Source: Vibrio pectenicida (GTDB lineage: Bacteria; Pseudomonadota; Gammaproteobacteria; Enterobacterales; Vibrionaceae). From it: a stretch of 24,000 nt of DNA. Shown piece after piece: positions 5,399-18,559 of the stretch (its first letter is position 1; every line of letters starts with the position of its first letter). Location: assembly GCF_003937805.1 (NCBI RefSeq), contig NZ_RSFA01000009.1, one strand, 5' to 3'. The notes below the pieces were generated by a model that saw only the letters and a program-made list of their open reading frames with translations, searched no databases and was not told the origin of the DNA. Both the position numbers and the translations under genes were made by a program.

Positions 5399-6400
5399 CT
5401 ACTCAATAGAATTTTCATCTTTAAGGCTCCATTTGTGGTAGATTTCCCTGATCTCATCCTCTAGGCCTAAAAAAATCTCTACTAAATCTGGATCAAAGTG
5501 TGAACCAGAATTATTTTTAATTTCAATCAGCGCTTCTTCTATTGACCAAGCTTTTTTGTAAGGTCGCTCCATAGTCAGAGCATCAAACACATCGCAAATC
5601 GCTACAATCCTTGCACCTTGTGGTATCTGTTGACCCACTAAACCTTCAGGATATCCGGTACCATCCCAACGTTCATGATGCGATTTTGCGACGTCTGCGC
5701 CTAATTGGAATACAGGGTTAGAAGACATAGATAATATTTCGTGTCCAATCTCTGAATGTTTCTTCATAACCACCCATTCATCATCATCCAACCCTCTTGG
5801 GGCTTTTAGAATCGCATCAGGTATGCCGATTTTACCAGTGTCATGTAATGGTGCGGCTAGCTCCAACCGGTTATAATTTTCATAATCCCAACCCACAGCT
5901 TTAGCTAATAATTTACAATACTCCGCCATACGCCAAATATGGCTGCCAGTATCGGTATCGTTATAGTGACCAGCGACACCCAGCATTCGAATTGCTGATA
6001 GCGCCAAGGAATCGACTTCAGCCAACCGTGTCAGTGAGAGGTGAGTCGCCACACGTCGAAGTACAATAGCTGGAGAGAATGGCTTCGTAATATAATCGAC
6101 GGCTCCTAGGTCAAAACCCATTGACTGATCGTCGGTATCATCCTTGGCAGAAATAAAAATAACAGGAATATGAGAGGTCTCAGGGTTACGCTTTAGCCTG
6201 CGGCAGACTTCAAAGCCATCCATATCTGGCATCATGATATCGAGTAAAATAATATTAGGTTGAGGAGATGTACTGGCCAGCTTTAACGCTTTCTCACCAT
6301 TTGTTGCAGCTCTGACCGAGTAATTTCCTTTCTCCAGTACACTTTTTAGAATACGGATGTTATCCGGCACATCGTCAACAACTAAGATAGTTTTGTCCAT
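5399..6400 (-). CDS. Response regulator with HD-GYP output domain (RpfG-type c-di-GMP phosphodiesterase)
   Basis: REC domain: ILVVDDVPDN, phospho-acceptor context LLDIMMPDMDG, ITKPF. HD-GYP domain: LHDTGKIGIPD, HHERWDGTGYPEGL. The start lies 14 nt after the kinase stop. Confidence 0.93.
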   Translation of the reverse strand: MDKTILVVDDVPDNIRILKSVLEKGNYSVRAATNGEKALKLASTSPQPNIILLDIMMPDMDGFEVCRRLKRNPETSHIPVIFISAKDDTDDQSMGFDLGAVDYITKPFSPAIVLRRVATHLSLTRLAEVDSLALSAIRMLGVAGHYNDTDTGSHIWRMAEYCKLLAKAVGWDYENYNRLELAAPLHDTGKIGIPDAILKAPRGLDDDEWVVMKKHSEIGHEILSMSSNPVFQLGADVAKSHHERWDGTGYPEGLVGQQIPQGARIVAICDVFDALTMERPYKKAWSIEEALIEIKNNSGSHFDPDLVEIFLGLEDEIREIYHKWSLKDENSIE

Positions 6401-6414
6401 ACTTATCTCTTACT

Positions 6415-9159
6415 TTATCCTTGTAGGCTGGATAACATTGTATCCAAGCATTCTAGCGCTTCATCACTGTCATATATTTCAACAGCGTCATTCAAACGGT
6501 CAATTTGATCAGCTTTTACATGTCCTTGTATCATTGCGATTAGATTAGCTATGCTATCCTCTTCAAATTCCCCCAATTCAAGTTGCTCCCTAATCTCTGC
6601 ACTAAGAGCTATCACAACTTTACAGTCAAATTCCTGAGCTTGTACAAGCGACACTTCTGGCTGAAGACCGATTAAAGCAATCGACTCTAGTACTTGCTGT
6701 AATGCCGATGAGAGTTCGTTCCATGATTCAGAAATATCTTGGTCCTGTAACTTAAAAGCTTGCTCAAAAGTAAAGGCAACTTGAGATAAACGATGCGCGC
6801 CTAAAGAGGCAGAAGCTCCCTTCAAGGTATGGGCTGTAATTTCACCTTGTGAATAGTCTTTATCTGCCCATGAGGTTTTCAAATCGCTGAATGTACTTTG
6901 GTTATTTTTCGAAAAGCTATTGAGAAGTTTGGTGAACAGTATTCTATCATCATTGACTCTGGAGAGCCCTTCTTCAACATCAATACCAGGTAACTCCGGA
7001 AATGCCACATTATCTGCAACGTCATCACTTTGCTGTGGAGATGCAAACTCAAAATTGTCATCTTTGAATTTCGGATCGATCCACTTAAGTAACTTACTGT
7101 AAAGCTCACTGGTATCTATCGGTTTAGCGATATGGTCATTCATACCTGCTTCAGCGCATCGCTCTCGATCCTGTTGCATCGCATTAGCCGTCATAGCAAT
7201 GATAGGAAGCTCTCTTTGAGTGGGTTGTTCCCGAAGTACTCTTGCAGCCTCCAAACCATCCATCACTGGCATTTGTAAATCCATTAAGATGATGGCAAAC
7301 TTCCCATCAAGTGCCTTATCTACCCCTTCTTTTCCGTTGTTGGCTACTTCAACATTAAGGCCAACACTTTCAAGGAGCTCTATAGCGATAATTTGGTTAA
7401 CTTCATTATCCTCCACCAAAAGTACTGGTGCCCCACGAACTGTAGCAAAACTATCGTATAAGGCTTCACTCTCATTATTCTGACTTGAACTGTCAGAAAC
7501 CACAGCCTTACCCATAACCTCCATAACAGTATCCAGCAGCGCTGAAGCACTAACAGGTTTCACCAAGAAACCATCAATTTTTGCTTCAGACGCTTGGAGA
7601 ACGACTTCTTCTCTTCCATATGCGGTCATTAAAATAATTTTCGGGGGGCAATCAAGTGTCTTAATAATTTCAGATGCCTTAATACCATTCATTTCTGGCA
7701 TTTGCCAGTCCATTAAAACAAGCTCATAAGGACTGTCCTCAGCCATTGCTTTCTTAACCATATCAATGGCTTCAAATCCATTCACTGCGGTTGATATTTC
7801 AAGAGAGTAGGAATTAAGGAGTTCTTGGTTAATATCGCGGGCGCTTTTATTGTCATCAACGACGAGCGCTTTCATACCTTTGAGCTTTTTCCAATTGTAG
7901 ACACGCTCTTGCTGGTTCTCGATTTCTTTATCAAGAACACCAAACTCAGCGGTAAAGATAAAGCTACTCCCTTCTTGATAAACACTTTCTACCCAGATAT
8001 CACCATTCATCAGGTGCACCAAGTTCTGACAAATACTTAGGCCTAAACCAGTACCTCCATATTTACGAGTAGTTGAAGTATCGGCCTGGCTAAACGCACT
8101 AAATAGCTTTTGTATCTGTTCTGGCTTTAAACCTATACCTGTATCTTTGATCTCAAACTTTAATTTAACCCATTCGTTTAACTGCTCACAATTTGTGACT
8201 TTAACAATGATATCTCCTTGCTCAGTAAACTTGATTGCGTTATTGCAAAGGTTAGTGAGTATTTGACCAAGACGTAAAGGATCCCCAACCAACGAGTTGG
8301 GCAACTCTGGAGGAGTCGAGAAAATGACTTCCAATCCCTTTTCTTGTGCTTTTAGGGTAATTATTGTACATAAATCATCAAATACCTTATCAAGTTGAAA
8401 CGGTATTGACTCCATTTCCATTTTACCCGCTTCAATTTTAGAGATATCAAGAATGTCATTAATAATGCCCAACAATGCACGACCTGCTGAGTTTATTTTG
8501 CTAATGTAATCATGCTGCTTTGACGTCAATTGAGTCTTTAAAACAAGTTCACTCAGACCAATAACCGCATTCATCGGGGTACGTATTTCATGGCTCATAT
8601 TGGCCAAGAAATCACCTTTTGCCACATCTGCTTCTTTGGTTTTTTCTAAAGATATCTCTAATTCACGCATCAATTCTTGCTGCGAGAGCTGATTAAGCTT
8701 ATTACGTTGAATATCAACGTGTTCTTTAGGATAAAAGTTAGGATTGGGAAAACGTTTAAATGCCGTCAGCTTGTGTGAATGGTTACTCGCCGTCTCGACC
8801 GTAAAATAATCAAAAATGTAATCGTAATTCATTGACGTAACAGAACCGACTGCACTGTTAAGCTCAAGTTCAATTCCCCAGAGGTCAGCATTGCGAGAAA
8901 AAAAAAGTGCAACATTAAAACTGTCACAAGTGGATAAAAAGTTGTGACAAACTTCCGAAACAGCAGTCGCCAATCGCACTGAATTTACCCTAGAAAACTG
9001 ACAGTCTAGCGCAAGCCTTTTTACCTTATTTCTAAAATCAACAATAGATGGGCTATCTTCAATGCTGTATTCAGCAAGCTTAATGCTGCCTTCCTTAGAC
9101 GCTTGCTCCATTTCTTTTATGACGGTTTCGAGATTCATAGTCCATGTCCGAGTTCTCAA
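6415..9159 (-). CDS. Soluble hybrid sensor histidine kinase: RsbT-like degenerate N-domain, coiled coil, HisKA, HATPase_c, REC, REC, Hpt
   Basis: H-box SHEIRTPMNAVIG. N, G1 and G2 boxes NLCNNAIKFT, DTGIGL, GGTGLGLSI. REC1: VVDDN..LMDWQMPEMNG..VKP. REC2: LVEDNEVN..LMDLQMPVMDG..AKP. Hpt: HTLKGASASLG. No transmembrane segment is evident. TTG 9159 overlaps the rsbX stop (TTGA); the first ATG is at 9138 (MNLETV). Confidence 0.92.
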   Translation of the reverse strand: MRTRTWTMNLETVIKEMEQASKEGSIKLAEYSIEDSPSIVDFRNKVKRLALDCQFSRVNSVRLATAVSEVCHNFLSTCDSFNVALFFSRNADLWGIELELNSAVGSVTSMNYDYIFDYFTVETASNHSHKLTAFKRFPNPNFYPKEHVDIQRNKLNQLSQQELMRELEISLEKTKEADVAKGDFLANMSHEIRTPMNAVIGLSELVLKTQLTSKQHDYISKINSAGRALLGIINDILDISKIEAGKMEMESIPFQLDKVFDDLCTIITLKAQEKGLEVIFSTPPELPNSLVGDPLRLGQILTNLCNNAIKFTEQGDIIVKVTNCEQLNEWVKLKFEIKDTGIGLKPEQIQKLFSAFSQADTSTTRKYGGTGLGLSICQNLVHLMNGDIWVESVYQEGSSFIFTAEFGVLDKEIENQQERVYNWKKLKGMKALVVDDNKSARDINQELLNSYSLEISTAVNGFEAIDMVKKAMAEDSPYELVLMDWQMPEMNGIKASEIIKTLDCPPKIILMTAYGREEVVLQASEAKIDGFLVKPVSASALLDTVMEVMGKAVVSDSSSQNNESEALYDSFATVRGAPVLLVEDNEVNQIIAIELLESVGLNVEVANNGKEGVDKALDGKFAIILMDLQMPVMDGLEAARVLREQPTQRELPIIAMTANAMQQDRERCAEAGMNDHIAKPIDTSELYSKLLKWIDPKFKDDNFEFASPQQSDDVADNVAFPELPGIDVEEGLSRVNDDRILFTKLLNSFSKNNQSTFSDLKTSWADKDYSQGEITAHTLKGASASLGAHRLSQVAFTFEQAFKLQDQDISESWNELSSALQQVLESIALIGLQPEVSLVQAQEFDCKVVIALSAEIREQLELGEFEEDSIANLIAMIQGHVKADQIDRLNDAVEIYDSDEALECLDTMLSSLQG

Positions 9160-9734
9160 TTAACTCGGATGACTAGGCAAGTTGCATCATCTGATGCTTT
9201 TGCAAATTTCCGAGTAATATTTTGGGCGATAGTTTCAGCATTATCAGTATAGATGCTCGGGTAATCTTTTGGATCAAAATTACTCATGATTCCATCAGAA
9301 TAAAGGATCAATATTTCTCCAGGTACAAGTTGAACTGTATTTTTGACTGGTGTCCGTATTTGATAACCAAGTACACCTTGCTGGCAGATAAACCTTTGAA
9401 CTTCCTTACCAACTTTGCACATGAATATATTGCCAATACCCACGTAATCAAAACGCAATGAATTTATATCTAAATTAGCAATAATGGCAACGCCACCATT
9501 CGTGCTGCGCAAATTGTTGTGTAATTGTTCCATTAGCACGGGCAGATCTGTCTGGTACGATTGTTTCAAAAAGCTTCTTGTTGTACTGGCAATACTATGA
9601 GCACTTTTCCCATGACCAGCACCATCGAACAAGCTAATAAAATAGTCATTTCCATTCTGCTGATAAAAAGCATCATCCCCATTGACTTCTTCAAGTGGTT
9701 TTTCACCTATCGCTATCTCAATTTTTTCAGCCAT
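9156..9734 (-). CDS. rsbX: RsbX-like PP2C/SpoIIE-family serine phosphatase
   Basis: About 192 aa, similar in length and motif order to B. subtilis RsbX: GDDAF, FDGAGHGKSA, ILYSDGI, DDATCLVI. ATG 9734 overlaps the rsbT stop (TAATG) with AGGAAA upstream. An alternative in-frame ATG is at 9746. Confidence 0.85.
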   Translation of the reverse strand: MAEKIEIAIGEKPLEEVNGDDAFYQQNGNDYFISLFDGAGHGKSAHSIASTTRSFLKQSYQTDLPVLMEQLHNNLRSTNGGVAIIANLDINSLRFDYVGIGNIFMCKVGKEVQRFICQQGVLGYQIRTPVKNTVQLVPGEILILYSDGIMSNFDPKDYPSIYTDNAETIAQNITRKFAKASDDATCLVIRVN

Positions 9735-10135
9735 TATCTGCGCCATTTCCTTACCGTCACTTCAGTGCCAACACCAATTTCTGTTTCTATTTGCAGTGAA
9801 TCCATTAATCTCTGAGTGCCCGGTAAGCCAACCCCCATAGTACCGTGTGTACTGTAATTATCACTCAACGCTTTTTGCACATCATGTATACCGCCACCAC
9901 TATCTTTGGCAACGATTTCAACTCCAGTTCTGGTCTCATCTTCTAGATATTTTAAATACAACACTCCATGACCAGCATGATTAAGAATATTACGTGTCAG
10001 CTCACTAACTGCTATTGAAATCATGTATTGATCGACTGTCGAAAACCCAAGTTTTAGAGCAAACTTTTTCGCGTCTAAGCTAGCGTATCCAACGTCAGAG
10101 TCAGTCGCTATGTCTATTTTAATAATATTATCCAC
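9734..10135 (-). CDS. rsbT: RsbT-like stressosome serine kinase (anti-sigma-factor-type HATPase_c_2)
   Basis: 133 aa, the same length as B. subtilis RsbT and collinear with it: LGFSTVDQ, N-box IAVSELTRNIL, G1 DSGGGI, G2 GVGLPG, C-terminal VRKWRR. The GTG start has GGAGG 11 nt upstream. Confidence 0.9.
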   Translation of the reverse strand: MDNIIKIDIATDSDVGYASLDAKKFALKLGFSTVDQYMISIAVSELTRNILNHAGHGVLYLKYLEDETRTGVEIVAKDSGGGIHDVQKALSDNYSTHGTMGVGLPGTQRLMDSLQIETEIGVGTEVTVRKWRR

Positions 10136-10193
10136 TCCTGAGCCAACCTCCGATTCAGAAATAAAAGGGACTCACTCTACATTCTTAATAGTT

Positions 10194-10571
10194 TTATTTC
10201 TGATAATTGAGTAGGTAATCTAAAGCCTCCTCCATATTCCTTTTAGTCTTTAGATTGCTGGTATCCATATTGGAATCTATCATCGAAGCAATAATACCAG
10301 GACTTAAGCCAGTTACTGCGGTATGAGAGCCCATAACTTGAATCATATTGGCCGATTTGGTGAAAACATCCCACAGAGAGCTATCAACAATATCTACCCC
10401 AGAAAAATCAATAATCACACCAGCCACATGACGAGAACCTAGTGTATCCAAAATAACTTCTTGAACTCTTTTAGCATCCTCAATAGACAATTCATCTTGT
10501 ATAGGGACAATCAAGCAACGACTCATGTTATGAGTCACCACTTTGATCATGTTTTCTGCGGTGCTACTCAT
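10194..10571 (-). CDS. rsbS: RsbS-like single-domain STAS scaffold protein
   Basis: STAS fold signature with the phosphorylatable Ser context GVDIVDSS (cf. B. subtilis RsbS VDMIDSF) and TGLSPGIIASM. ATG 10571 has AGGA 8 nt upstream and overlaps the rsbR stop (ATGAGTAG). The ORF track extends to 10595. Confidence 0.87.
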   Translation of the reverse strand: MSSTAENMIKVVTHNMSRCLIVPIQDELSIEDAKRVQEVILDTLGSRHVAGVIIDFSGVDIVDSSLWDVFTKSANMIQVMGSHTAVTGLSPGIIASMIDSNMDTSNLKTKRNMEEALDYLLNYQK

Positions 10572-12135
10572 GCCATGATTCCTGATGTTCATCACTTTGG
10601 ATCAGTGTATAACCGGCAATTTTGAACGAGTTGTTAACTCCCTCTTTTAGGGTAGACTGAGTGACAACATCATTTAACTCAATGCCAAGATTAACTATCG
10701 CTTGAGCAACCACGGGAGAAATACCTGTCACTATACAAACACATCCCATAAGCCGCGTTGCTTTAGCAACCTTCAAAAGGTGATTTGCTACAGCACTGTC
10801 TACTGTAGGGACACCTTGTATATCTATCACTATCACCCGCGCTTCATAGTCGATAACTTTTTGTAATACGGCTTCCATAATCATCTGGATCCGGTTTGAA
10901 TCAATTAAGCCAATCACTGGTAACATCAATACTTTATCCCATAGCTGCATCACTGGAGTCGACATCTCCATTATCATCGATGCCTGCTTAGCTCGTTCTT
11001 CAGACATTTTTTTTCTATCAGTAATATCTGAAGCCACTTTGAGTACTTTGTATGGCTCACCTTTGAGATCTAACACTGGATTATAAGTTGCTTGAATAAA
11101 GACCTCGCGGCCATTTTTGGCAATACGTTTAAATTCTCCTGAAATAAACTGGCCTGCGCCGAGTTCACGCCAAAATTCTCTGTATTGCTCTGTTTCACTG
11201 TATTCTCGCTCACAAAATAGCCTATGGTGCTTACCTTGAATTTCTGCAAGGTTGTATCCCATAAGATCCAAAAAGTTTTGGTTGGCGGAAATAATGGTCC
11301 CGTCGAGATTAAATTCTATTGTGCCAAGCGATTTATCAATAGCATCAGCTTTAGCCTGCGCTTCATTACTAACCGTTTTATATTCTGTGATGTCTGAGGC
11401 AACCTTCAGTACTTTAACTAACTTGCCCTGCTCGTTGAATACAGGATTGTACGTTGCTTGAATAAATACTGTTTCTCCATCTTTGGTAACACGAATATAT
11501 TCACCGGAACTAAATTCACCTTTGCCAAGGCTATCCCAGAATTGGCTGTACTCCACACTCTGTCGGTATTGATCTTCACAAAAAATCCTATGATGCTTTC
11601 CTTTGATTTCATCAAGAGAATAATGCATTAAATCGAGAAAATTTTGATTGGCCGTGATAATGGTACCGTCTAAATTAAATTCAATGGTAGCTAATGATTT
11701 GTTTATAGCTTCAGTATGAGCTTTTGCCTTTAGACTGATAAGTTTGTTCTCAGTAATATCTGTCGCTACCTTGATTACTCGAATGGGCTTACCATTGCCA
11801 TCAAATACAGGGTTGTAAGTCGCTTGAAGGTAAATTTCATTACCACTTTTGGTCACTCGTTTGTACTCACCAGAATCAAATTCACCAGCACCTAAATTAT
11901 TCCAAAAATCTTTATAAGCACGACTTCGAGCATAGGTTGGTTGAACAAAAATCCTATGATGCTTTCCTTTGATTTCATCAAGCGTGTAACCAACAACATT
12001 TAGGAAGTTCTGATTCGCGTTAAAGATGGTCCCATCGAGCTCAAATTCTATTACTCCCTGAGACCTGTGAATTGCGTTGTACACGCTCTCGTATAATGCT
12101 GACTCATTATCAAAACCTTTGTTTGTTTTCTTCAT
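10564..12135 (-). CDS. rsbR: RsbR-like stressosome sensor: three tandem PAS domains plus a C-terminal STAS domain
   Basis: AAGGAG lies 5 nt upstream of ATG 12135 (MKKTNKG); the track's upstream extension to 12198 is probably non-coding. Three 122-aa units each carry IEF.LDGTI..AN.NFL...GY.L.EI.GKHHR.F...Y and ATYNPV....G......KVA.DIT. The C-terminal STAS resembles the RsbR C-terminus: VIDIQGVPTVDSAVANHLL, IVTGISPVVAQAIVNLGIEL. Confidence 0.88.
   Translation of the reverse strand: MKKTNKGFDNESALYESVYNAIHRSQGVIEFELDGTIFNANQNFLNVVGYTLDEIKGKHHRIFVQPTYARSRAYKDFWNNLGAGEFDSGEYKRVTKSGNEIYLQATYNPVFDGNGKPIRVIKVATDITENKLISLKAKAHTEAINKSLATIEFNLDGTIITANQNFLDLMHYSLDEIKGKHHRIFCEDQYRQSVEYSQFWDSLGKGEFSSGEYIRVTKDGETVFIQATYNPVFNEQGKLVKVLKVASDITEYKTVSNEAQAKADAIDKSLGTIEFNLDGTIISANQNFLDLMGYNLAEIQGKHHRLFCEREYSETEQYREFWRELGAGQFISGEFKRIAKNGREVFIQATYNPVLDLKGEPYKVLKVASDITDRKKMSEERAKQASMIMEMSTPVMQLWDKVLMLPVIGLIDSNRIQMIMEAVLQKVIDYEARVIVIDIQGVPTVDSAVANHLLKVAKATRLMGCVCIVTGISPVVAQAIVNLGIELNDVVTQSTLKEGVNNSFKIAGYTLIQSDEHQESWHE
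10999..12099 (-). repeat. Intragenic tandem triplication, 366-nt period (the three PAS modules of rsbR)
   Basis: The protein repeat period is exactly 122 aa. The 36-nt string aaaaatcctatgatgctttcctttgatttcatcaag is identical at 11581-11616 and 11947-11982 (offset 366). The third copy at 11215-11250 matches 28/36. Confidence 0.85.
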
Positions 12136-12411
12136 GACCACTCCTTGGATTGATTTCACCCAACAAAAATACCTAAACAACTCGATGGTAATAATCAATC
12201 AACTATAGAAGAAGGTCGCAAAAACAGCCCACCTAAAATCTAATCATCAGTAAATAAAAATAAATATCTTCGCGCATTACTTAGTGCACAAATTACAACT
12301 TTTCTTTTGTTTAAGTACTTGATACACCAATAAGTTACTACTGTATTTTGGCAAAATTGACTATTCTTAAAGTAAACCAGTGCGATGCGAAAGAATAATA
12401 GGAATAATTCA

Positions 12412-13803
12412 ATGGCTCAGGATAACTACAACAAGCTTTCTGACGGTGAACTTGAGTATGTGGATGATAAAACTGCCGCGCTATTATTAAATACTCCCAG
12501 TAGTGCACGTATAATGCTTTGGGTGATGGTACTCTTTTTAATCCTAGCGGCAGTCTGGGCTTCATGGGCAAAAATAGATAAAGTTACTGTTGGAGAAGGC
12601 AAAGTGGTCCCCTCTTCTCAAGTACAAATAGTGCAAAACCTTGAGGGGGGACTTGTTAAGGAAATCTTAGTTCGTGAAGGTCAATCAGTTCAAAAAGGCC
12701 AGCAACTACTTTTAATTGATGACACGCGTTTTCGGTCCGACTTTCGCGAACGTGAACAACAAATAGCTAACCTAACCGCAAGCGTTTTACAGTTGTCTGC
12801 TTCCATGACCAGCGTCACCGTCAATGAAAAAAATGACCAAAAATCTTGGAAAAAAAGAGTCGAAATCAACTTCAACAAGCTAGCCTTCCCTCCTTCTTTG
12901 GCTGAAAGACAACCGCGGCTGGTCGCCAGACAACGCGCCGAGTACCAACAAGACCTTAATAATTTAAGTAATCGTCTCTCAGTGATTGACCAGCAAGTAA
13001 AACAAAAACAACAAGACTTGGTTGAAATCCAAGCTCGTGTGGAAAACTTACGTGATAGTTATAACTTTGCCCGCAAAGAGCTTGAAATAACTCAACCGCT
13101 CGCAGACGAAGGGGTAGTACCGCAAATAGAACTATTGAAATTACAAAGACAGGTTAATGACACACAAAGAGAAATGACCTCAAGTGAACTTAAAATACCA
13201 GTATTAAAGTCGGCCATTCAAGAGGCCATGCTAAATCGTATTGATGCTGCCCAGAAATTTCGCTCAGAGCAACAGGAAAAGCTCAACCAAGCTCAGGATA
13301 AACTCTCTTCACTTACTGAATCCAGTGTAGGCTTAGAAGATAGAGTAAACCGAACCATCGTCATTTCACCCGTGATGGGAACCGTTAAAACACTCAATGT
13401 TAATACCGTAGGTGGCGTAATACAGCCAGGTATGGATATAGTAGAAATAGTGCCTAGCGAAGACACTCTGCTCGTTGAAGCAAAAATTGCCCCACAGGAC
13501 ATTGCTTTTTTGCGGCCAAACTTAAATGCCATTGTTAAATTTAGTGCTTACGACTTTACTAAATATGGTGGACTAGAAGGCAGTCTCGAACACATTAGTG
13601 CTGATACCACAACAGATGAAGAAGGAAATAGCTTTTATCTTGTAAGAGTAAGGACCAAAGAAACTAGTCTTAACAATGATGCATTGTTACCCATCATACC
13701 TGGTATGACAGCATCAGTGGATATAATTACAGGCAAGAGAACGGTTATGGAATATTTACTTAAGCCGATTCTCGGTGCCAAAAATAACGCATTAAAGGAA
13801 TAA
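12412..13803 (+). CDS. lapC: Type I secretion membrane-fusion (periplasmic adaptor) protein, HlyD family, LapC-like
   Basis: Short cytoplasmic N-tail, one TM helix (IMLWVMVLFLILAAVWASWA), a long coiled-coil middle and a C-terminal barrel with typical HlyD strings (VISPVMGTVKTLNV, GGVIQPG, IVEIVPSEDTLLVEAKI.PQDI, PGMTASVDIITGKRTVMEYLLKP). AGGA lies upstream of ATG 12412; an alternative ATG is at 12385. Confidence 0.9.
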   Translation: MAQDNYNKLSDGELEYVDDKTAALLLNTPSSARIMLWVMVLFLILAAVWASWAKIDKVTVGEGKVVPSSQVQIVQNLEGGLVKEILVREGQSVQKGQQLLLIDDTRFRSDFREREQQIANLTASVLQLSASMTSVTVNEKNDQKSWKKRVEINFNKLAFPPSLAERQPRLVARQRAEYQQDLNNLSNRLSVIDQQVKQKQQDLVEIQARVENLRDSYNFARKELEITQPLADEGVVPQIELLKLQRQVNDTQREMTSSELKIPVLKSAIQEAMLNRIDAAQKFRSEQQEKLNQAQDKLSSLTESSVGLEDRVNRTIVISPVMGTVKTLNVNTVGGVIQPGMDIVEIVPSEDTLLVEAKIAPQDIAFLRPNLNAIVKFSAYDFTKYGGLEGSLEHISADTTTDEEGNSFYLVRVRTKETSLNNDALLPIIPGMTASVDIITGKRTVMEYLLKPILGAKNNALKE

Positions 13804-13848
13804 ATATGCTCAATACTCGACTCAAACATTCGTCTAAAATGTAGCGCA

Positions 13849-14511
13849 ATGAAGTTCTGGCTTTCTATCCTCGTGATAATTTTAGTTTCAACGGCTTCAA
13901 AAGCACTCAACACCCAAGAGCAGCGTTGGGTAGAAGCAGTTCGCAAAACTTATGGAGAGCGAGCAGGAAAGAGGGTAGAAACTTGGCGTCGAGAAATGGT
14001 GCAATTTAAAGCAATTTCAGAAAAAGAAAAGTTGGTCAAAGTAAACCGTTTCTTCAATCAACTAAACTTCGTTAATGACGATCGCCTCTGGGGCAAAAAG
14101 GATTATTGGGCCACACCACTTGAATTTCTTGGCAGTAATGGTGGAGATTGTGAAGATTTTACGATTGCAAAATATTTTTCATTACTTGAGCTTGGGGTCT
14201 CGGACAGAAAGCTGAGGCTGGTTTACGTTAAAGCAATCTCATTAAACCAGTTCCATATGGTATTAGCTTACTACTCGAAACCAAGCGCAGAACCCATTTT
14301 GCTCGATAATATTGACCCACAAATAAAAAGAGCCTCAAAACGCAGAGATTTATTACCAATTTACAGCTTCAATGGTAAAAACTTGTGGCTAATGAAGTCG
14401 AAAAAAGGACAGCTGGCAGGGAAGTCATCAAGACTTAGTTTATGGAATGATCTCAGAGCCAGAGAAAAATCACTCAAATTGAATAAACCAATTTTAAATT
14501 ACGATGAGTAA
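13849..14511 (+). CDS. lapG: LapG-like periplasmic transglutaminase-like cysteine protease (BTLCP/DUF920)
   Basis: Signal peptide MKFWLSILVIILVSTASKA. Nucleophile context GGDCEDFTIAKY, then His (FHMVLAYY) and Asp (LLDNID), matching the C-H-D triad order of the LapG family. It sits next to a LapD-type receptor. Confidence 0.88.
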   Translation: MKFWLSILVIILVSTASKALNTQEQRWVEAVRKTYGERAGKRVETWRREMVQFKAISEKEKLVKVNRFFNQLNFVNDDRLWGKKDYWATPLEFLGSNGGDCEDFTIAKYFSLLELGVSDRKLRLVYVKAISLNQFHMVLAYYSKPSAEPILLDNIDPQIKRASKRRDLLPIYSFNGKNLWLMKSKKGQLAGKSSRLSLWNDLRAREKSLKLNKPILNYDE

Positions 14512-14516
14512 GCAAT

Positions 14517-16427
14517 ATGACTTTATATAAACAACTTGTCGCGGGAATGATAGCAGTATTTCTGATGCTGATGGTCTCCGTCTTCATCATCGAATTTAAC
14601 ACAACGCGAAATAGCTTGATTCAACAGCAGCGTTCAGAAATGAACAATACTATTAACACCGTTGGCCTTGCCTTAGCCCCCTACCTTGAGAGCAAAGATC
14701 AAGTCGCCGTAGAATCTGTGGTTAATGCTCTATTTGATGGCAGTACCTACTCCATTGTTCGATTGATTTTTTTAGATAATGGTGAAGAAATCATACGCTC
14801 CTATCCCGTTAAACCACTCGACGTACCGGACTGGTTCACCAATCTTAATTTATTTGAACGCATTCACGATCGCCGAGTCGTCACCAGTGGTTGGATGCAA
14901 CTCGCAGAGGTTGAGATAGTCAGCCACACTGGGGAAGCCTACGCCCAGTTGTGGAATGCCTTCTTACGGCTACTTGTTGCGTTTAGCATCATTTTTTCCA
15001 TTGGTTTATTATCGATTGCTTTTATTCTCAAGCGCGCATTACGTCCGTTATTGCTGATAGTAACCAAGATGGAACAAGTCGCTAAGAATCAATTCGGCGA
15101 CCCATTACCTATGCCAAAAACCCTAGATCTTATTGCAGTGGTTGAAGGAATAAATAGTATGTCAACGCAAGTTGAGCAGTCTTTCAAAGCTCAAGCAAAG
15201 GAAGCTCAACAACTTAGAGAACGCGCCTATATTGATCCAGTATCTGGGCTTGGTAACCGCGCTTACTACATGAACCAACTCAATGCATGGCTTGGAGAAA
15301 GTGGAGTAGGAGGCGTCGCTATCCTTGAAGCACATTTTCTTACTGAAATTTATGAGGAGAAAGGATACAAAGAAGGAGACAGTTTAGTAAAAGAACTTGC
15401 TAACCAACTCAGCGTTGCACTCAACTCATCTGAAATGACTATTGCGCGAATTTCTAATGAAGAATTTGGCTTCATTATGCCTAATATGGATGAGGGAGAA
15501 CTAAAATCGATTTCGGAGGGCATTGTTAATTATGCTCATGGGACCAATGCAGATCCGACAGGAATGGCCAAATCAAATTTAGCTCTAGGCGTGGTGTATA
15601 ACGAAAGTAATAAGAGCACCTCTGATATTCTGACGATGCTGGACAACGCTCTTGCAACCGCAAAATCTGATCCAGAAATCAATTATGGCTATGTCACTAG
15701 CGATAACTCAGAGAATCTAATGGGTAAGCAGCAGTGGAAAACACTGGTTGAAGAAGCGATGAGCAATGATTGGTTTAAATTCCGTTATCAAGCAGCTAAT
15801 GATGGCTCAGGCAAGACTTATCATCGCGAAGTTTTCTCCGCAATAGAAAGGGATGGGGAGAGGTTCAGCGCCAATCAATATATGTTTGCATTAGAACAAC
15901 TTCATGCCAGCCATATATTTGATGAGTACGTAATAGAAATCATGGTATCTCAACTTGAAAATGGCGTATTCTCAGACCCAGTCGCTATCAATATTTCTCA
16001 AAGCAGCATTGCTGAACCAAGCTTTATCCGCTGGATCGGCCAAGTCTTAGGCAAACATAAATCTGCTGCAGCTCTTTTACATTTTGAAATACCTGAAAAC
16101 TGCTTTGTCAATACACCACACCATACTGCTCTTTTCTGTAATGCCGTCAGGAGTGCAGGGGCTGATTTTGGTGTAGATAATTACGGTCGAAATTTCCAGT
16201 CTTTGGACTATATCAACGAATTCAGACCTGCTTATGTTAAAGTTGATTACTTGTATACACATCATTTAGATGATGAAAATCAGAAGTTTACCTTAACTTC
16301 CATTTCACGAACTGCACACAACCTTGGTATAAAGACCATTGCATCGCGAGTTGAAACACAAGCCCAACTTGATTTCTTGGCTGAACATTTTATCGATGTA
16401 TTCCAAGGTTTTATTGTAGATAAGTAA
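14517..16427 (+). CDS. lapD: LapD-like inner-membrane c-di-GMP receptor (periplasmic LapD_N domain, HAMP, degenerate GGDEF, degenerate EAL)
   Basis: Two TM helices flank a roughly 125-aa periplasmic domain carrying the GW loop (TSGWMQ, W126). A HAMP-like segment follows. The GGDEF-domain start is DPVSGLGNRAYY, but the signature is SNEEF rather than GG(D/E)EF. EAL-domain signatures are degenerate: EVF for EAL, DNYG for DDFG, ASRVE for EGVE; QGF is retained. Confidence 0.87.
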   Translation: MTLYKQLVAGMIAVFLMLMVSVFIIEFNTTRNSLIQQQRSEMNNTINTVGLALAPYLESKDQVAVESVVNALFDGSTYSIVRLIFLDNGEEIIRSYPVKPLDVPDWFTNLNLFERIHDRRVVTSGWMQLAEVEIVSHTGEAYAQLWNAFLRLLVAFSIIFSIGLLSIAFILKRALRPLLLIVTKMEQVAKNQFGDPLPMPKTLDLIAVVEGINSMSTQVEQSFKAQAKEAQQLRERAYIDPVSGLGNRAYYMNQLNAWLGESGVGGVAILEAHFLTEIYEEKGYKEGDSLVKELANQLSVALNSSEMTIARISNEEFGFIMPNMDEGELKSISEGIVNYAHGTNADPTGMAKSNLALGVVYNESNKSTSDILTMLDNALATAKSDPEINYGYVTSDNSENLMGKQQWKTLVEEAMSNDWFKFRYQAANDGSGKTYHREVFSAIERDGERFSANQYMFALEQLHASHIFDEYVIEIMVSQLENGVFSDPVAINISQSSIAEPSFIRWIGQVLGKHKSAAALLHFEIPENCFVNTPHHTALFCNAVRSAGADFGVDNYGRNFQSLDYINEFRPAYVKVDYLYTHHLDDENQKFTLTSISRTAHNLGIKTIASRVETQAQLDFLAEHFIDVFQGFIVDK

Positions 16428-16444
16428 CAAGGTTATAGCCGTAC

Positions 16445-18559
16445 ATGCAAGATCCTTTACTCAATTCACTCATATACATCAGTCGATATTTTGGTTTAGC
16501 TAATTCGCCTGAAGCACTAATTAATGGTTTACCATTGTCCTCAGGGAAACTAACACCATTTCTTTTCCCTCGAGCAACCGAACGTGCAGGTTTAATCGCT
16601 AAGGAAAACCGTTCTAACTTGACAGACATCTCAGAGTTAGTATTACCGGTCGTCTTACTCCTTAAGGATGGAGATGCCTGTGTATTAAACACCATTAACT
16701 TAGAGAAGCAGGAAGCTGAAATTGTGACTGGGGAATCAGGCCTAGTGCCTACTGCTGTATCATTGGAAGAACTCAATGAGCTCTATATTGGCCGTTATTT
16801 CCTAGTTAAAAAGCAGTTCCGATATGATGAACGCTCGCCCGAGATACTAAAGACCCGAGAAGGGCATTGGTTCTGGAGCACGTTGTGGCAGTCAAGAAAT
16901 ATCTACAGAGATGTATTTATTGCCTCGATACTGATTAACATGTTCGCAGTTGCTGCCCCCATGTTTACCCGCTTAGTCTATGACAAAGTTGTTCCAAATT
17001 TAGCTTTTGAAACACTTTGGGTGCTGGCTAGCGGTATCTTTGCAATTTTTATATTTGAACTGACACTAAAAATTCTTCGTAGCTACTTTATCGATGTCGC
17101 TGGCAAGAAATCTGACATTTTAATCTCATCAAAAATATTTAGTAAAGTACTAGGAATTCGAATGGAAGCAAGGCCTCCATCTGTTGGCGCTTTTGCTAAA
17201 CATTTACAAGAATTCGAATCAATTCGAGAATTTTTTGCTTCCGCGACAATTGGCTCCTTAATAGATTTACCATTCGCTCTTCTATTTCTTTTATTAATCT
17301 GGTTGATGGCAGGCAGCTTAGTCATTATACCGATTATAGGTGTATTGATTTTAGTGATTTACTCAATAATCATACAAGGGCCACTGAAACGTTCCATTGA
17401 AGAAGGCTCACGTTTAGCATCACAAAAATATGCCAATCTCATTGAGAGCTTATCTGGCCTAGAAACTCTCAAACTTTTCGGTGCACAAAGCCAATTTCAA
17501 TATAAATGGGAAGAAGCTGTTGCTCATATGTCCAAATGGAGTATTAAAAGCAAACGTATTACAGATGGAATCCACAATACCGCCGGCTTTGTTCAACAAG
17601 CATCCAACATTGGCATGATCATTCTCGGTGTCTATTTAATTGCTGATGGCGAGCTAACAATGGGCGGACTCATTGCAGCAACCATGCTTAGTAATCGTGC
17701 CATTGGCCCTATGGTTCAGCTCTCATTGCTTTCTACACGTTACAATCAAGCAAAATCCTCTTTGGCTATTATTGAACAAATCATGGCAATGCCAGATGAA
17801 CAAGAAGAAGGTAAACGTTATATACATCGCCCCATTGTTAAAGGTAAAATTGAATTAGATAAAGTTACCTTTAACTACCCAGATGCCCCTATCGCTTCAA
17901 TACGAGATTTAAGTCTCACAATCAATCCCGGTGAAAAAGTCGCGATCATTGGCAGAATAGGATCTGGTAAAACCACACTTGAGCGTCTAATACTTGGGCT
18001 TTATAAACCTACTGAAGGCCATGTTCGTATCGATGACACTGATATCCAGCAACTGCACCATATCGATATCAGGCGTAATATCGGCTGTGTGCCTCAAGAC
18101 AGTCAGCTGTTTTATGGGTCCATACGAGACAATATCACGCTTGGACGACCTCTCGCCGACGACCGAGATATTATGGATGCAGCCAATCGTGCTGGAGTCA
18201 CTGTCTTTACTCAACAAGATCCAGCAGGATTGGAACGACAAGTTGGCGAGGGAGGTTTACTTCTTTCTGGAGGTCAGCGCCAGGCAGTTACTATCGCACG
18301 TGCATTTTTACATAGACCACCTGTTTTACTGATGGACGAACCTACCAGTGCAATGGATAATCGCTCTGAGATGCAAATTAAACAGCAACTTTCTCAGCTA
18401 AAAAAATCTGAAACTTTGGTTTTGATAACCCATAAAACGTCCATGTTGGAAGTGGTTGATCGAATAATAGTTATGGAAAAAGGCACTATTATTACCGATG
18501 GTCCAAAAGCTGAAGTTCTCAATAACCTTAGGCAAGGCAACATTCGCGCTGTAAATTAG
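16445..18559 (+). CDS. lapB: Type I secretion ABC transporter (ATPase/permease) with N-terminal C39-like domain, LapB/HlyB-type
   Basis: The N-terminal ~130 aa resemble a C39 peptidase-like domain but lack a catalytic Cys near the N-terminus. A six-helix ABC membrane domain follows. Walker A GRIGSGKTT, signature LSGGQRQ, Walker B LLMDEPTS, H-loop ITHK. Confidence 0.92.
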   Translation: MQDPLLNSLIYISRYFGLANSPEALINGLPLSSGKLTPFLFPRATERAGLIAKENRSNLTDISELVLPVVLLLKDGDACVLNTINLEKQEAEIVTGESGLVPTAVSLEELNELYIGRYFLVKKQFRYDERSPEILKTREGHWFWSTLWQSRNIYRDVFIASILINMFAVAAPMFTRLVYDKVVPNLAFETLWVLASGIFAIFIFELTLKILRSYFIDVAGKKSDILISSKIFSKVLGIRMEARPPSVGAFAKHLQEFESIREFFASATIGSLIDLPFALLFLLLIWLMAGSLVIIPIIGVLILVIYSIIIQGPLKRSIEEGSRLASQKYANLIESLSGLETLKLFGAQSQFQYKWEEAVAHMSKWSIKSKRITDGIHNTAGFVQQASNIGMIILGVYLIADGELTMGGLIAATMLSNRAIGPMVQLSLLSTRYNQAKSSLAIIEQIMAMPDEQEEGKRYIHRPIVKGKIELDKVTFNYPDAPIASIRDLSLTINPGEKVAIIGRIGSGKTTLERLILGLYKPTEGHVRIDDTDIQQLHHIDIRRNIGCVPQDSQLFYGSIRDNITLGRPLADDRDIMDAANRAGVTVFTQQDPAGLERQVGEGGLLLSGGQRQAVTIARAFLHRPPVLLMDEPTSAMDNRSEMQIKQQLSQLKKSETLVLITHKTSMLEVVDRIIVMEKGTIITDGPKAEVLNNLRQGNIRAVN

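Follow-up and report, generated by a model that had tools for sequence, protein, structure and literature searches.

Introduction

To our knowledge, the inputs of stressosomes are mostly unknown, and only blue light, sensed by YtvA, and O2, sensed via a haem globin in Vibrio, are established. Blue light is sensed in Bacillus and Listeria by the LOV-STAS stressosome paralogues YtvA and RsbL, in which a flavin-PAS-fold sensor is joined by a helix to the stressosome STAS domain. In V. vulnificus and V. brasiliensis, the stressosome RsbR (PDB 7o0i) carries one haem globin, and its gene is part of an rsbR-rsbS-rsbT-rsbX module that is followed by two-component proteins and lacks a sigma factor. Earlier work has already listed V. 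pectenicida as one of four Vibrio species with a full stressosome module (PMC9237108, PMC4976288).

Tandem PAS domains with a period of ~122 aa are found in the cytoplasmic proteins AerC of Azospirillum and BdlA and McpS of Pseudomonas aeruginosa, which combine two PAS domains with a chemoreceptor signalling domain. The title of a 2012 article by Petrova and Sauer, as cited in PMC10468136, speaks of a BdlA "prosthetic group". In Aer, N85 is the Asn that is hydrogen-bonded to flavin N3/O4 and R115 is the Arg above N5. A conserved Trp and a conserved His have been reported as determinants of the AerC and Aer FAD-PAS clusters (Xing et al. 2023, PMC10468136); in Aer, the Trp on F-alpha stacks on the adenine, the His on E-alpha stacks on the isoalloxazine, and the His, H53, was aligned with the LOV cysteine (PMC10468136). 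The PAS domains of BdlA and McpS are predicted FAD binders (PMC8694187).

Here, we analysed a window of 24,000 nucleotides from V. pectenicida (contig NZ_RSFA01000009.1). We consider it likely that its rsbR-type gene encodes the RsbR-type sensor of a sigma-factor-independent Vibrio stressosome and that this sensor contains an old array of three FAD-type PAS units in which one young, silent micro-conversion has taken place. The locus resembles those of V. vulnificus and V. brasiliensis in its homologous STAS domain, in the rsbR-rsbS-rsbT-rsbX module followed by two-component proteins and in having no sigma factor. It differs from them in that the sensor consists of three PAS domains, in that the output regulator is of the REC-HD-GYP type and in that the operon lies beside a LapD/LapG system.

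Results

The rsbR-type gene lies on the minus strand at 10564..12135 and, as delineated by its ORF, translation and Pfam matches (three PAS stretches and STAS), encodes a protein of 523 aa composed of an N-cap, three PAS units, a helical linker and a STAS domain. The MKK start is kept in orthologues and in the relative P0121, and an alternative upstream TTG at 12198 is without conservation in orthologues. On the same strand, unit 1 (U1, residues 15-136) is encoded at 11728..12093 with the candidate FAD residues H60 (11956-11958) and W78 (11902-11904), unit 2 (U2, residues 137-258) at 11362..11727 with H182 (11590-11592) and W200 (11536-11538), and unit 3 (U3, residues 259-380) at 10996..11361 with H304 (11224-11226) and W322 (11170-11172). 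The linker helix (residues ~372-391) and the RsbR-type STAS domain, assigned by secondary structure and the STAS match, follow at 10564..10995. A sequence-only reading of this DNA had described three consecutive units of 122 aa with a common set of motifs, and indeed all three are exactly 122 aa long, have no indels and contain every motif. The 366-nt period was recovered by a repeat search of the DNA; Tandem Repeats Finder did not detect it in the DNA because the unit copies are only 59-65% identical at this level (53-63% in protein).

Pfam, AlphaFold and Foldseek all bear out the proposal of that reading that a single PAS module, repeated three times in tandem, makes up the sensor region. 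PAS_3 matches the sensor with 168.6 bits (cut-off 25.6; E 3.6e-50) in three stretches, as do PAS_9 (135.1 bits) and PAS_4 (133.3 bits). The AlphaFold model of unit 2 (pLDDT 93.7) has the canonical PAS topology, with the elements in the order A-beta, B-beta, C/D/E/F-alpha and G/H/I-beta and a five-stranded antiparallel sheet with flanking helices, and in the full-length model the three PAS cores are connected by helices 128-147, 250-269 and 372-391. With the unit model, Foldseek returned the solved PAS/LOV domains NifL, MmoS, LOV and Aer with a probability of 1.00 and TM values of 0.72-0.84. Profile searches and the AlphaFold model of the unit agree on a PAS fold, with the FAD-binding PAS redox sensors MmoS, Aer and NifL (PDB 3ewk, 8dik, 2gj3) as the nearest solved relatives and best sequence/profile matches among solved structures; a profile built from 29 units matches MmoS 3ewk (4e-18), Aer 8dik (1e-12) and NifL.

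STAS homology, Ser positions and gene neighbourhood identify the gene product as an RsbR-type stressosome sensor subunit. Matches to the STAS domain include RsbR of the V. vulnificus stressosome (7o0i_B; E 5.5e-41) and Listeria RsbR (6qcm and 7b0u; about 1e-30), and Ser413 and Ser447 occupy the two RsbT phospho-acceptor positions, at which Listeria RsbR has Thr and the deposited variants 9o3o and 9o3z have Ala. Downstream on the minus strand are rsbS (10194..10571), the ATG of which overlaps the rsbR stop by 8 nt and which encodes a single-STAS-domain protein of 125 aa, the length also given by the orthologue gene calls, with the phospho-acceptor Ser conserved in VDIVDSS; an rsbT-type serine kinase gene (9734..10135; HATPase_c_2 in Pfam); and an rsbX-type PP2C/SpoIIE phosphatase gene (9156..9746; Pfam). 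These are followed by genes for a hybrid histidine kinase (6415..9159; HisKA-HATPase-REC-REC-Hpt), the presumed output partner judging from its domains and its synteny in orthologues, and for a REC-HD-GYP response regulator (5399..6400) that is predicted from domains and synteny to be a c-di-GMP phosphodiesterase. The synteny of rsbS, rsbT, rsbX and the kinase and HD-GYP genes is conserved in orthologues, and rsbR stands in the same order with rsbS, rsbT and a PP2C phosphatase gene in orthologues and in the two-unit relative P0121. Divergently, on the plus strand at 12385..18559, domain matches identify a HlyD-type fusion protein, a LapG-type protease (Peptidase_C93), a LapD-type c-di-GMP receptor and an ABC exporter; this Lap-type neighbourhood of the operon is shared by V. 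pectenicida and Vibrio sp. Gene order alone leads us to presume that RsbT is coupled to the kinase and the HD-GYP regulator to LapD.

The sequence-only reading regarded the duplication as recent, and the comparison of the units refutes this on several counts. Synonymous sites between units are saturated rather than little diverged (pS 0.70-0.93; dS undefined or >2 by NG86, for which we used our own implementation reporting pS for saturated unit pairs), and dN is 0.23-0.45 between units versus 0.04-0.17 between orthologues. Outside a 36-nt block the sharing of codons is at random expectation (observed/expected: 20/22.7, 28/26.0 and 37/30.3, in a model that holds the amino acids constant and samples codons according to their usage in the window), which also argues against conversion of entire units as a continuing process. 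The three units recur in unchanged order in five other Vibrio species, and in the four orthologues placed in trees the units group by position with starred support. The reading had taken three units with saturated synonymous divergence in distant taxa as the mark of an old architecture; what we found comes near to this, in sister species rather than in distant taxa. Together, these comparisons indicate that the triplication is ancient and occurred long before the present small Vibrio clade, which comprises 6 of 285 species genomes, diversified. The dN/dS between V. pectenicida and sister species is ~0.03-0.06 in every unit, indicating that all three units have been maintained by purifying selection since the triplication; unit 1 evolves fastest relative to the nearest sister species (dN 0.071 vs 0.033 and 0.030 for the other units).

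The 36-nt block itself is as had been described: the sequence at 11947..11982 in unit 1 is identical in 36/36 positions to that at 11581..11616 in unit 2, and 28/36 positions match at the equivalent block in unit 3 (11215..11250), all on the minus strand. The block encodes LDEIKGKHHRIF, the most conserved motif of the units. Its identity is beyond chance, since a run of at least 36 identical nt arose in 1 of 20000 simulations with fixed amino acids and window codon usage (P ~5e-5) and the analytic probability of 12 identical codons is 3.6e-5. U1 and U2 match in 36/36 positions in V. pectenicida, in 35/36 in a 98.7%-identical strain and in 26-30/36 in eight other orthologue loci, and at block sites 18, 30 and 33 unit 1 shows the unit-2 states. 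For this block, then, the suggestion of gene conversion stands: beyond chance, absent from orthologues and with acceptor sites shifted to donor states, it records a genuine, silent and species-specific micro gene conversion of 16-36 nt from unit 2 as the donor to unit 1 as the acceptor, with unit 3 unconverted and the direction-showing sites spanning 11950-11965. Its distribution dates the conversion to the time between the separation from the nearest sister species and the divergence of the two V. pectenicida strains.

Public data contain ~100 clusters of PAS-STAS proteins in which 1-5 units of this type occur. The suggestion that a three-PAS array is unusual for RsbR therefore holds to the extent that no characterised RsbR has one, but not in the sense of rarity as such: an RsbR with three PAS domains, though uncharacterised, is not a singular case. 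Two units are the commonest state (85/119 proteins), and three, four or five are found in a few lineages. Among 400 sampled genomes of the class there was no other PAS+STAS match, and the wider distribution for this reason rests on metagenome proteins. Uncharacterised marine PAS-STAS proteins (for example from gammaproteobacterium HTCC2080, Pseudohongiellaceae, Nitrospina, Crocinitomicaceae) have the same PAS type and the same STAS type (62-87% identical), mostly with two units as opposed to the three of V. pectenicida RsbR. In P0121, the one closest relative examined, rsbS, rsbT and a SpoIIE-type phosphatase gene lie downstream as in V. pectenicida; it is 76% identical to the units and has two of them, as does the next outgroup, P0122. 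U3 is the orthologue of the second unit in two-PAS relatives, and unit 2 is possibly a mosaic, its first ~40 residues being of second-unit type and the remainder of first-unit type; AU tests for this mosaic origin, on trees computed from a MAFFT alignment, were not significant (p 0.06-0.14). Either a tandem duplication out of register or a recombination event inside an older array gave rise to the three units.

The V. pectenicida genome also encodes two paralogues with a BdlA/McpS-like architecture of two PAS domains and an MCP-signalling domain, likened to BdlA and McpS by architecture and not by sequence. A derivation of the units from these chemoreceptors was rejected, as they are 42-45% identical to the RsbR units compared with 76% for P0121. 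Among chemoreceptor relatives, 3-6 units occur at the identical 122-aa period.

The invariant GKHHR motif and the conserved aromatic residues had been proposed to mark a cofactor pocket, and alignment to solved structures supports this idea. The second His of GKHHR (H46 of the unit), conserved in at least 90% of 29 units, aligns with Aer H53, and the Trp of the FW motif (W64), invariant among the 29 units, corresponds to Aer W70 and to the MmoS Trp; every orthologue has both determinants in each of its three units. In addition to H53 and W70, G28 and M69 of Aer have kept equivalents (Phe in the units for M69). Other flavin contacts of Aer and MmoS are not: Aer N85 corresponds to Arg79 of the unit and Aer R115 to its invariant Ala110. 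We therefore did not file the protein under the Aer/MmoS clusters and, with Arg and Ala at the positions of Aer N85/R115 (MmoS N164/R195), the flavin environment, if present, differs. Co-folding with three FAD scored 0.08 with a best control of 0.24 and was used neither for nor against FAD binding. We suggest that the units are probably FAD-binding PAS domains of the AerC/BdlA type. Compared with AerC, BdlA and McpS, V. pectenicida RsbR shares the Trp and His that define the AerC-type cluster, the tandem ~122-aa period and the cytoplasmic location but has three units, a STAS output and a stressosome operon. It is similar to YtvA and RsbL in the helical connection of a flavin-PAS-type sensor to a stressosome STAS domain, with LOV among the best structural matches, and differs from them in having three domains instead of one and FAD instead of FMN as the predicted cofactor; with a His at the position of the photoactive LOV Cys, no light adduct is expected.

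Discussion

Several features of the array invite readings other than an old triplication with one young conversion tract. The exact 122-aa period without indels, the shared motifs and the 36-nt identical block might point to a recent triplication, or to whole-unit similarity upheld by ongoing conversion, and such events do occur in relatives, given that two units with at least 80% identity, in some cases 100%, are present in 24% of the 211 multi-unit proteins. However, the period is a family-wide structural constant, being the most frequent value among 426 unit spacings from 120 proteins, and the modest identity of the units in protein and DNA, the saturated synonymous sites, the codon sharing without excess outside the block, the position-wise clustering in trees and the presence of three units in all five sister species make this explanation extremely improbable. 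The block could also owe its identity to chance or to selection on nucleotides, acting on codon preference or on an RNA element within the most conserved motif. Units 1 and 2 of the nearest sister species are already identical in amino acids at this motif, and runs of 17-23 nt exist in other orthologues. Yet the simulated probability is very small, 35-36/36 matches are found only in V. pectenicida among ten related sequences, no such constraint is visible in sister species, and the shift of three unit-1 sites to unit-2 states is directional, unlike codon preference, so that we regard conversion as the far better explanation and chance or nucleotide selection as improbable.

The alternatives for the origin of the array and for its ligand are weightier. 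Three units may be ancestral, with P0121 having lost one by recombination between units 1 and 2 and no gain in Vibrio: the first 30 residues of P0121 unit 1 are more similar to U1 than to U2 (0.60 vs 0.51), the remainder is more similar to U2 than to U1 (0.70/0.62/0.63 vs 0.58/0.60/0.51), and the opening residues of U3 match P0121 unit 2 better (0.86) than U2 (0.72). Against this, two units greatly predominate in the family and are also the state of P0122, and the trees do not settle the order of events; we give the loss of a unit a little less than an even chance. As for the ligand, the units might function without FAD, binding haem or a small ligand, or merely forming a dimerising spacer by which one active unit is held at a set distance from the STAS core. 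The "prosthetic group" named for BdlA makes a non-flavin cofactor conceivable, and FAD-free units would be compatible with the missing equivalents of Aer N85 and R115, the uninformative FAD co-folding and the faster evolution of units 1 and 2 relative to unit 3. Against it are the Trp and His determinants, FAD-PAS domains as the closest solved relatives by sequence and the strong purifying selection on all units. FAD-free units thus seem rather unlikely, and FAD-type units remain our preferred reading.

On the basis of FAD-type units, we outline how the system might function. A helix of ~20 residues follows each PAS domain and gives the strict 122-aa period, and each unit would hold a flavin through its conserved His and Trp. 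A change in the redox or energy state of the cell would be transmitted via the linker helices to the STAS core, altering the sequestration of the RsbT kinase and the phosphorylation of RsbS and RsbR, and RsbX would reset the system. The signal would then pass through the hybrid kinase and the REC-HD-GYP regulator to c-di-GMP and from there to the adjacent LapD/LapG system. More tentatively, and with the balance of probability against the scheme as a whole, we propose a redox/energy-sensing stressosome with a three-flavin PAS "antenna" that may act as a metabolic switch for biofilm dispersal, in which HD-GYP activity lowers c-di-GMP, LapG releases a surface adhesin and the number of units (1-5) tunes sensitivity or reach.

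If a family of RsbR proteins uses AerC-type FAD-PAS domains, redox/energy state would be a testable third stressosome input, for which the conserved His and Trp are clear mutagenesis targets. The variation from 1 to 5 units across the family provides a natural series for addressing what tandem PAS domains contribute. The evolutionary side is ordinary: an old domain triplication kept by selection and one silent micro-conversion tract. PAS antennae of a comparable kind are otherwise found in receptors for energy taxis and biofilm dispersal (AerC, BdlA).

Architecture of the RsbR-type protein

The rsbR-type gene occupies positions 10564-12135 of the minus strand and, counted from its MKK start, encodes 523 aa, arranged as an N-cap, three PAS units (U1, 12093-11728; U2, 11727-11362; U3, 11361-10996; all minus strand), a helical linker and a STAS domain. 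U1, U2 and U3 are exactly 122 aa each with no indels between them, and all of the motif sets listed in the sequence-only reading recur in the three units; the identity of its 36-nt blocks at 11947-11982 and 11581-11616, with 28/36 matches in the U3 counterpart, was likewise reproduced. The MKK start is kept in all orthologues and the TTG at 12198 is not conserved. Because the orthologue open frames are only 528-542 aa long and have the MKK start in common, the 21 open codons between this start and the TTG (12136-12198) are probably an untranslated leader.

The STAS domain matches RsbR of the Vibrio vulnificus stressosome (7o0i_B, 5.5e-41) and Listeria RsbR, and Ser413 and Ser447 occupy both phospho-acceptor positions. 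The protein is thus an RsbR whose sensor is a tandem array of PAS domains of the AerC type.

Age of the triplication and the 36-nt block

The shared block had been read as a sign of recent duplication of the 122-aa units or of ongoing gene conversion. Across 120 proteins the most frequent unit spacing is 122 aa, and in the full-length model connector helices lie at residues 128-147, 250-269 and 372-391; the exact period is thus a constant of the structure (a PAS core followed by a connector helix of about 20 residues) and no sign of youth. The units share only 53-63% of their residues and 59-65% of their nucleotides in pairwise comparisons, the synonymous differences between them are saturated (pS 0.70-0.93), and dN between units, 0.23-0.45, exceeds the 0.04-0.17 found for the most distant orthologues. 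Outside the 36-nt block, codon sharing at identical residues is not above that predicted by codon usage (observed versus expected, 20 versus 22.7, 28 versus 26.0 and 37 versus 30.3). Orthologues of 523 aa with the same three units and 86-93% identity are present in five other Vibrio species (6/285 species genomes of the genus, that of V. pectenicida included), and in unit trees covering four of these five each unit falls into a highly supported cluster with the units at its own position in the other species. Saturated divergence, random-level codon sharing and position-wise clustering refute a recent duplication. The three shared units and the saturation come close to what the sequence-only reading had set as its own refutation, for which it asked orthologues in distant taxa; the taxa found here are sister Vibrio species. 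Comparison of the V. pectenicida gene with that of the nearest sister species gives a dS of about 1.0 and dN values of 0.071 for U1, 0.033 for U2, 0.030 for U3 and 0 for the STAS domain; all three units are under purifying selection.

The 36-nt block is a separate matter. With amino acids fixed and codons randomised, an identical run of at least 36 nt arose in 1 of 20000 simulated trials. U1 and U2 match at 36/36 positions here and at 35/36 in a conspecific metagenome contig (gene 98.7% identical). In the nearest sister species (87% nucleotide identity) they match at 30/36, and in seven further orthologue loci examined at 26-28/36. At block sites 18, 30 and 33 U1 of the relatives has C, A, and A or G, whereas U1 of V. 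pectenicida has the U2 states A, G and T. This is most simply explained by a single U2-to-U1 conversion tract of 16-36 nt that arose after the lineage had parted from the sister species but before the two sampled strains diverged. Because the block already encodes identical 12-residue stretches in U1 and U2 of the sister species, the change is silent. The proposed ongoing gene conversion thus holds for this patch and not beyond it.

Origin of the third unit and the PAS-STAS family

The closest relative outside the Vibrio clade is P0121, a two-unit metagenome protein of 398 aa encoded in one operon with rsbS, rsbT and a gene for a SpoIIE-type phosphatase; its residues 18-398 are 76% identical to residues 138-518 of the V. 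pectenicida protein. U3 is the orthologue of the second unit of P0121 (support 98/89). The first ~40 residues of U2 fall inside the second-unit clade (99/94) and its remainder groups weakly with the first unit of P0121 (74/41), so that U2 looks like a mosaic of a second-unit-type start and a first-unit-type remainder; AU tests on this mosaic were not significant (p 0.06-0.14). Tandem duplication out of register could have added a unit in the Vibrio lineage, but the mosaic is also compatible with the reverse recombination, by which one unit was lost in the P0121 lineage. Given that two units are the common state (85/119 proteins), parsimony mildly favours the gain in Vibrio.

A search with the STAS part recovered about 100 PAS-STAS protein clusters, whose proteins carry no unit (15), one (4), two (85), three (11), four (1) or five (3); chemoreceptor relatives have 3-6. 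The architecture is rare among complete genomes: 400 genomes sampled from the class yielded no other PAS plus STAS match. Recent duplication or concerted evolution of the module does happen elsewhere in the family: 24% of 211 proteins have a unit pair that is at least 80% identical (100% in some), and the two units are about 90% identical in many 391-aa PAS-STAS proteins (P0161, P0159 and others). In chemoreceptors with 5-6 units (P0086, P0071, P0074, P0003 and P0067, a V. caribbeanicus protein among them) the identity of unit pairs reaches 93-100%. Open frames of 955-1240 aa with many copies of the module and 51-55% identity to the query occur in three other species of the genus (loci L024-L027 on G069:C105, G194:C1 and G136:C2) and may be its longest PAS arrays.

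PAS identity and a candidate cofactor pocket

Pfam assigns PAS_3 (E 3.6e-50), PAS_9 and PAS_4 to three stretches each, and an AlphaFold model of U2 computed from a 29-unit alignment has canonical PAS topology (pLDDT 93.7). In Foldseek the model's neighbours (TM 0.72-0.84) belong to the flavin-binding branch of PAS domains: NifL, MmoS, Aer and many LOV domains. These data support the original PAS assignment. The top solved structures in a sequence-profile search, MmoS PAS-A (4e-18), Aer (1e-12) and NifL, are all FAD binders. Across the alignment W64 never varies and H46 (the second His in GKHHR) hardly does; their Aer counterparts are W70, stacked on adenine, and H53, stacked on isoalloxazine at the position of the LOV Cys. 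Precisely this Trp and this His are, according to Xing et al. (PMC10468136), what determines the AerC and Aer clusters of FAD-PAS domains. Given that Arg and an invariant Ala replace Aer N85 and R115, the candidate pocket is of the AerC and not the Aer/MmoS type. Homology therefore bears out the suggested cofactor pocket of GKHHR and the aromatic residues, and from it we infer that the units bind FAD.

The same genome encodes two cytoplasmic proteins of 432 and 435 aa (L040, G000:C247:21939-23237; L041, G000:C112:13884-15191) with two PAS domains, an MCP signalling domain, AerC/BdlA architecture and 42-45% identity to the RsbR units. They share their two-PAS plus MCP architecture with BdlA and McpS of Pseudomonas aeruginosa, the PAS domains of which are predicted FAD binders (PMC8694187).

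The stressosome operon

Downstream follow genes for RsbS, an RsbT-type kinase, an RsbX-type PP2C, a hybrid HisKA-REC-REC-Hpt kinase and a REC-HD-GYP regulator. RsbS keeps its phospho-acceptor Ser; of its possible starts, the ATG at 10571 (125 aa), which overlaps the rsbR stop by 8 nt (10564-10571), agrees best with the gene calls in orthologues, and the longer ORF that opens with a GTG at 10595 is probably unused. V. pectenicida has already been listed among the four Vibrio species that have a complete stressosome module (PMC9237108); we found no description of its PAS-type sensor in the literature. Judging sensing chemistry and wiring from homology and gene order, we suggest that this is most likely a redox/energy-sensing stressosome, the output of which would pass via the hybrid kinase and the HD-GYP protein onto c-di-GMP.

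Divergent from the operon and upstream of it lies a LapC-LapG-LapD-LapB-like cluster, so that within 5399-18559 an operon ending in a REC-HD-GYP regulator stands back to back with genes for a LapD-type c-di-GMP receptor, a LapG-type protease and type I secretion. The window contains neither an adhesin substrate nor an outer-membrane component. The whole stressosome and Lap arrangement is kept in V. pectenicida and one Vibrio sp.
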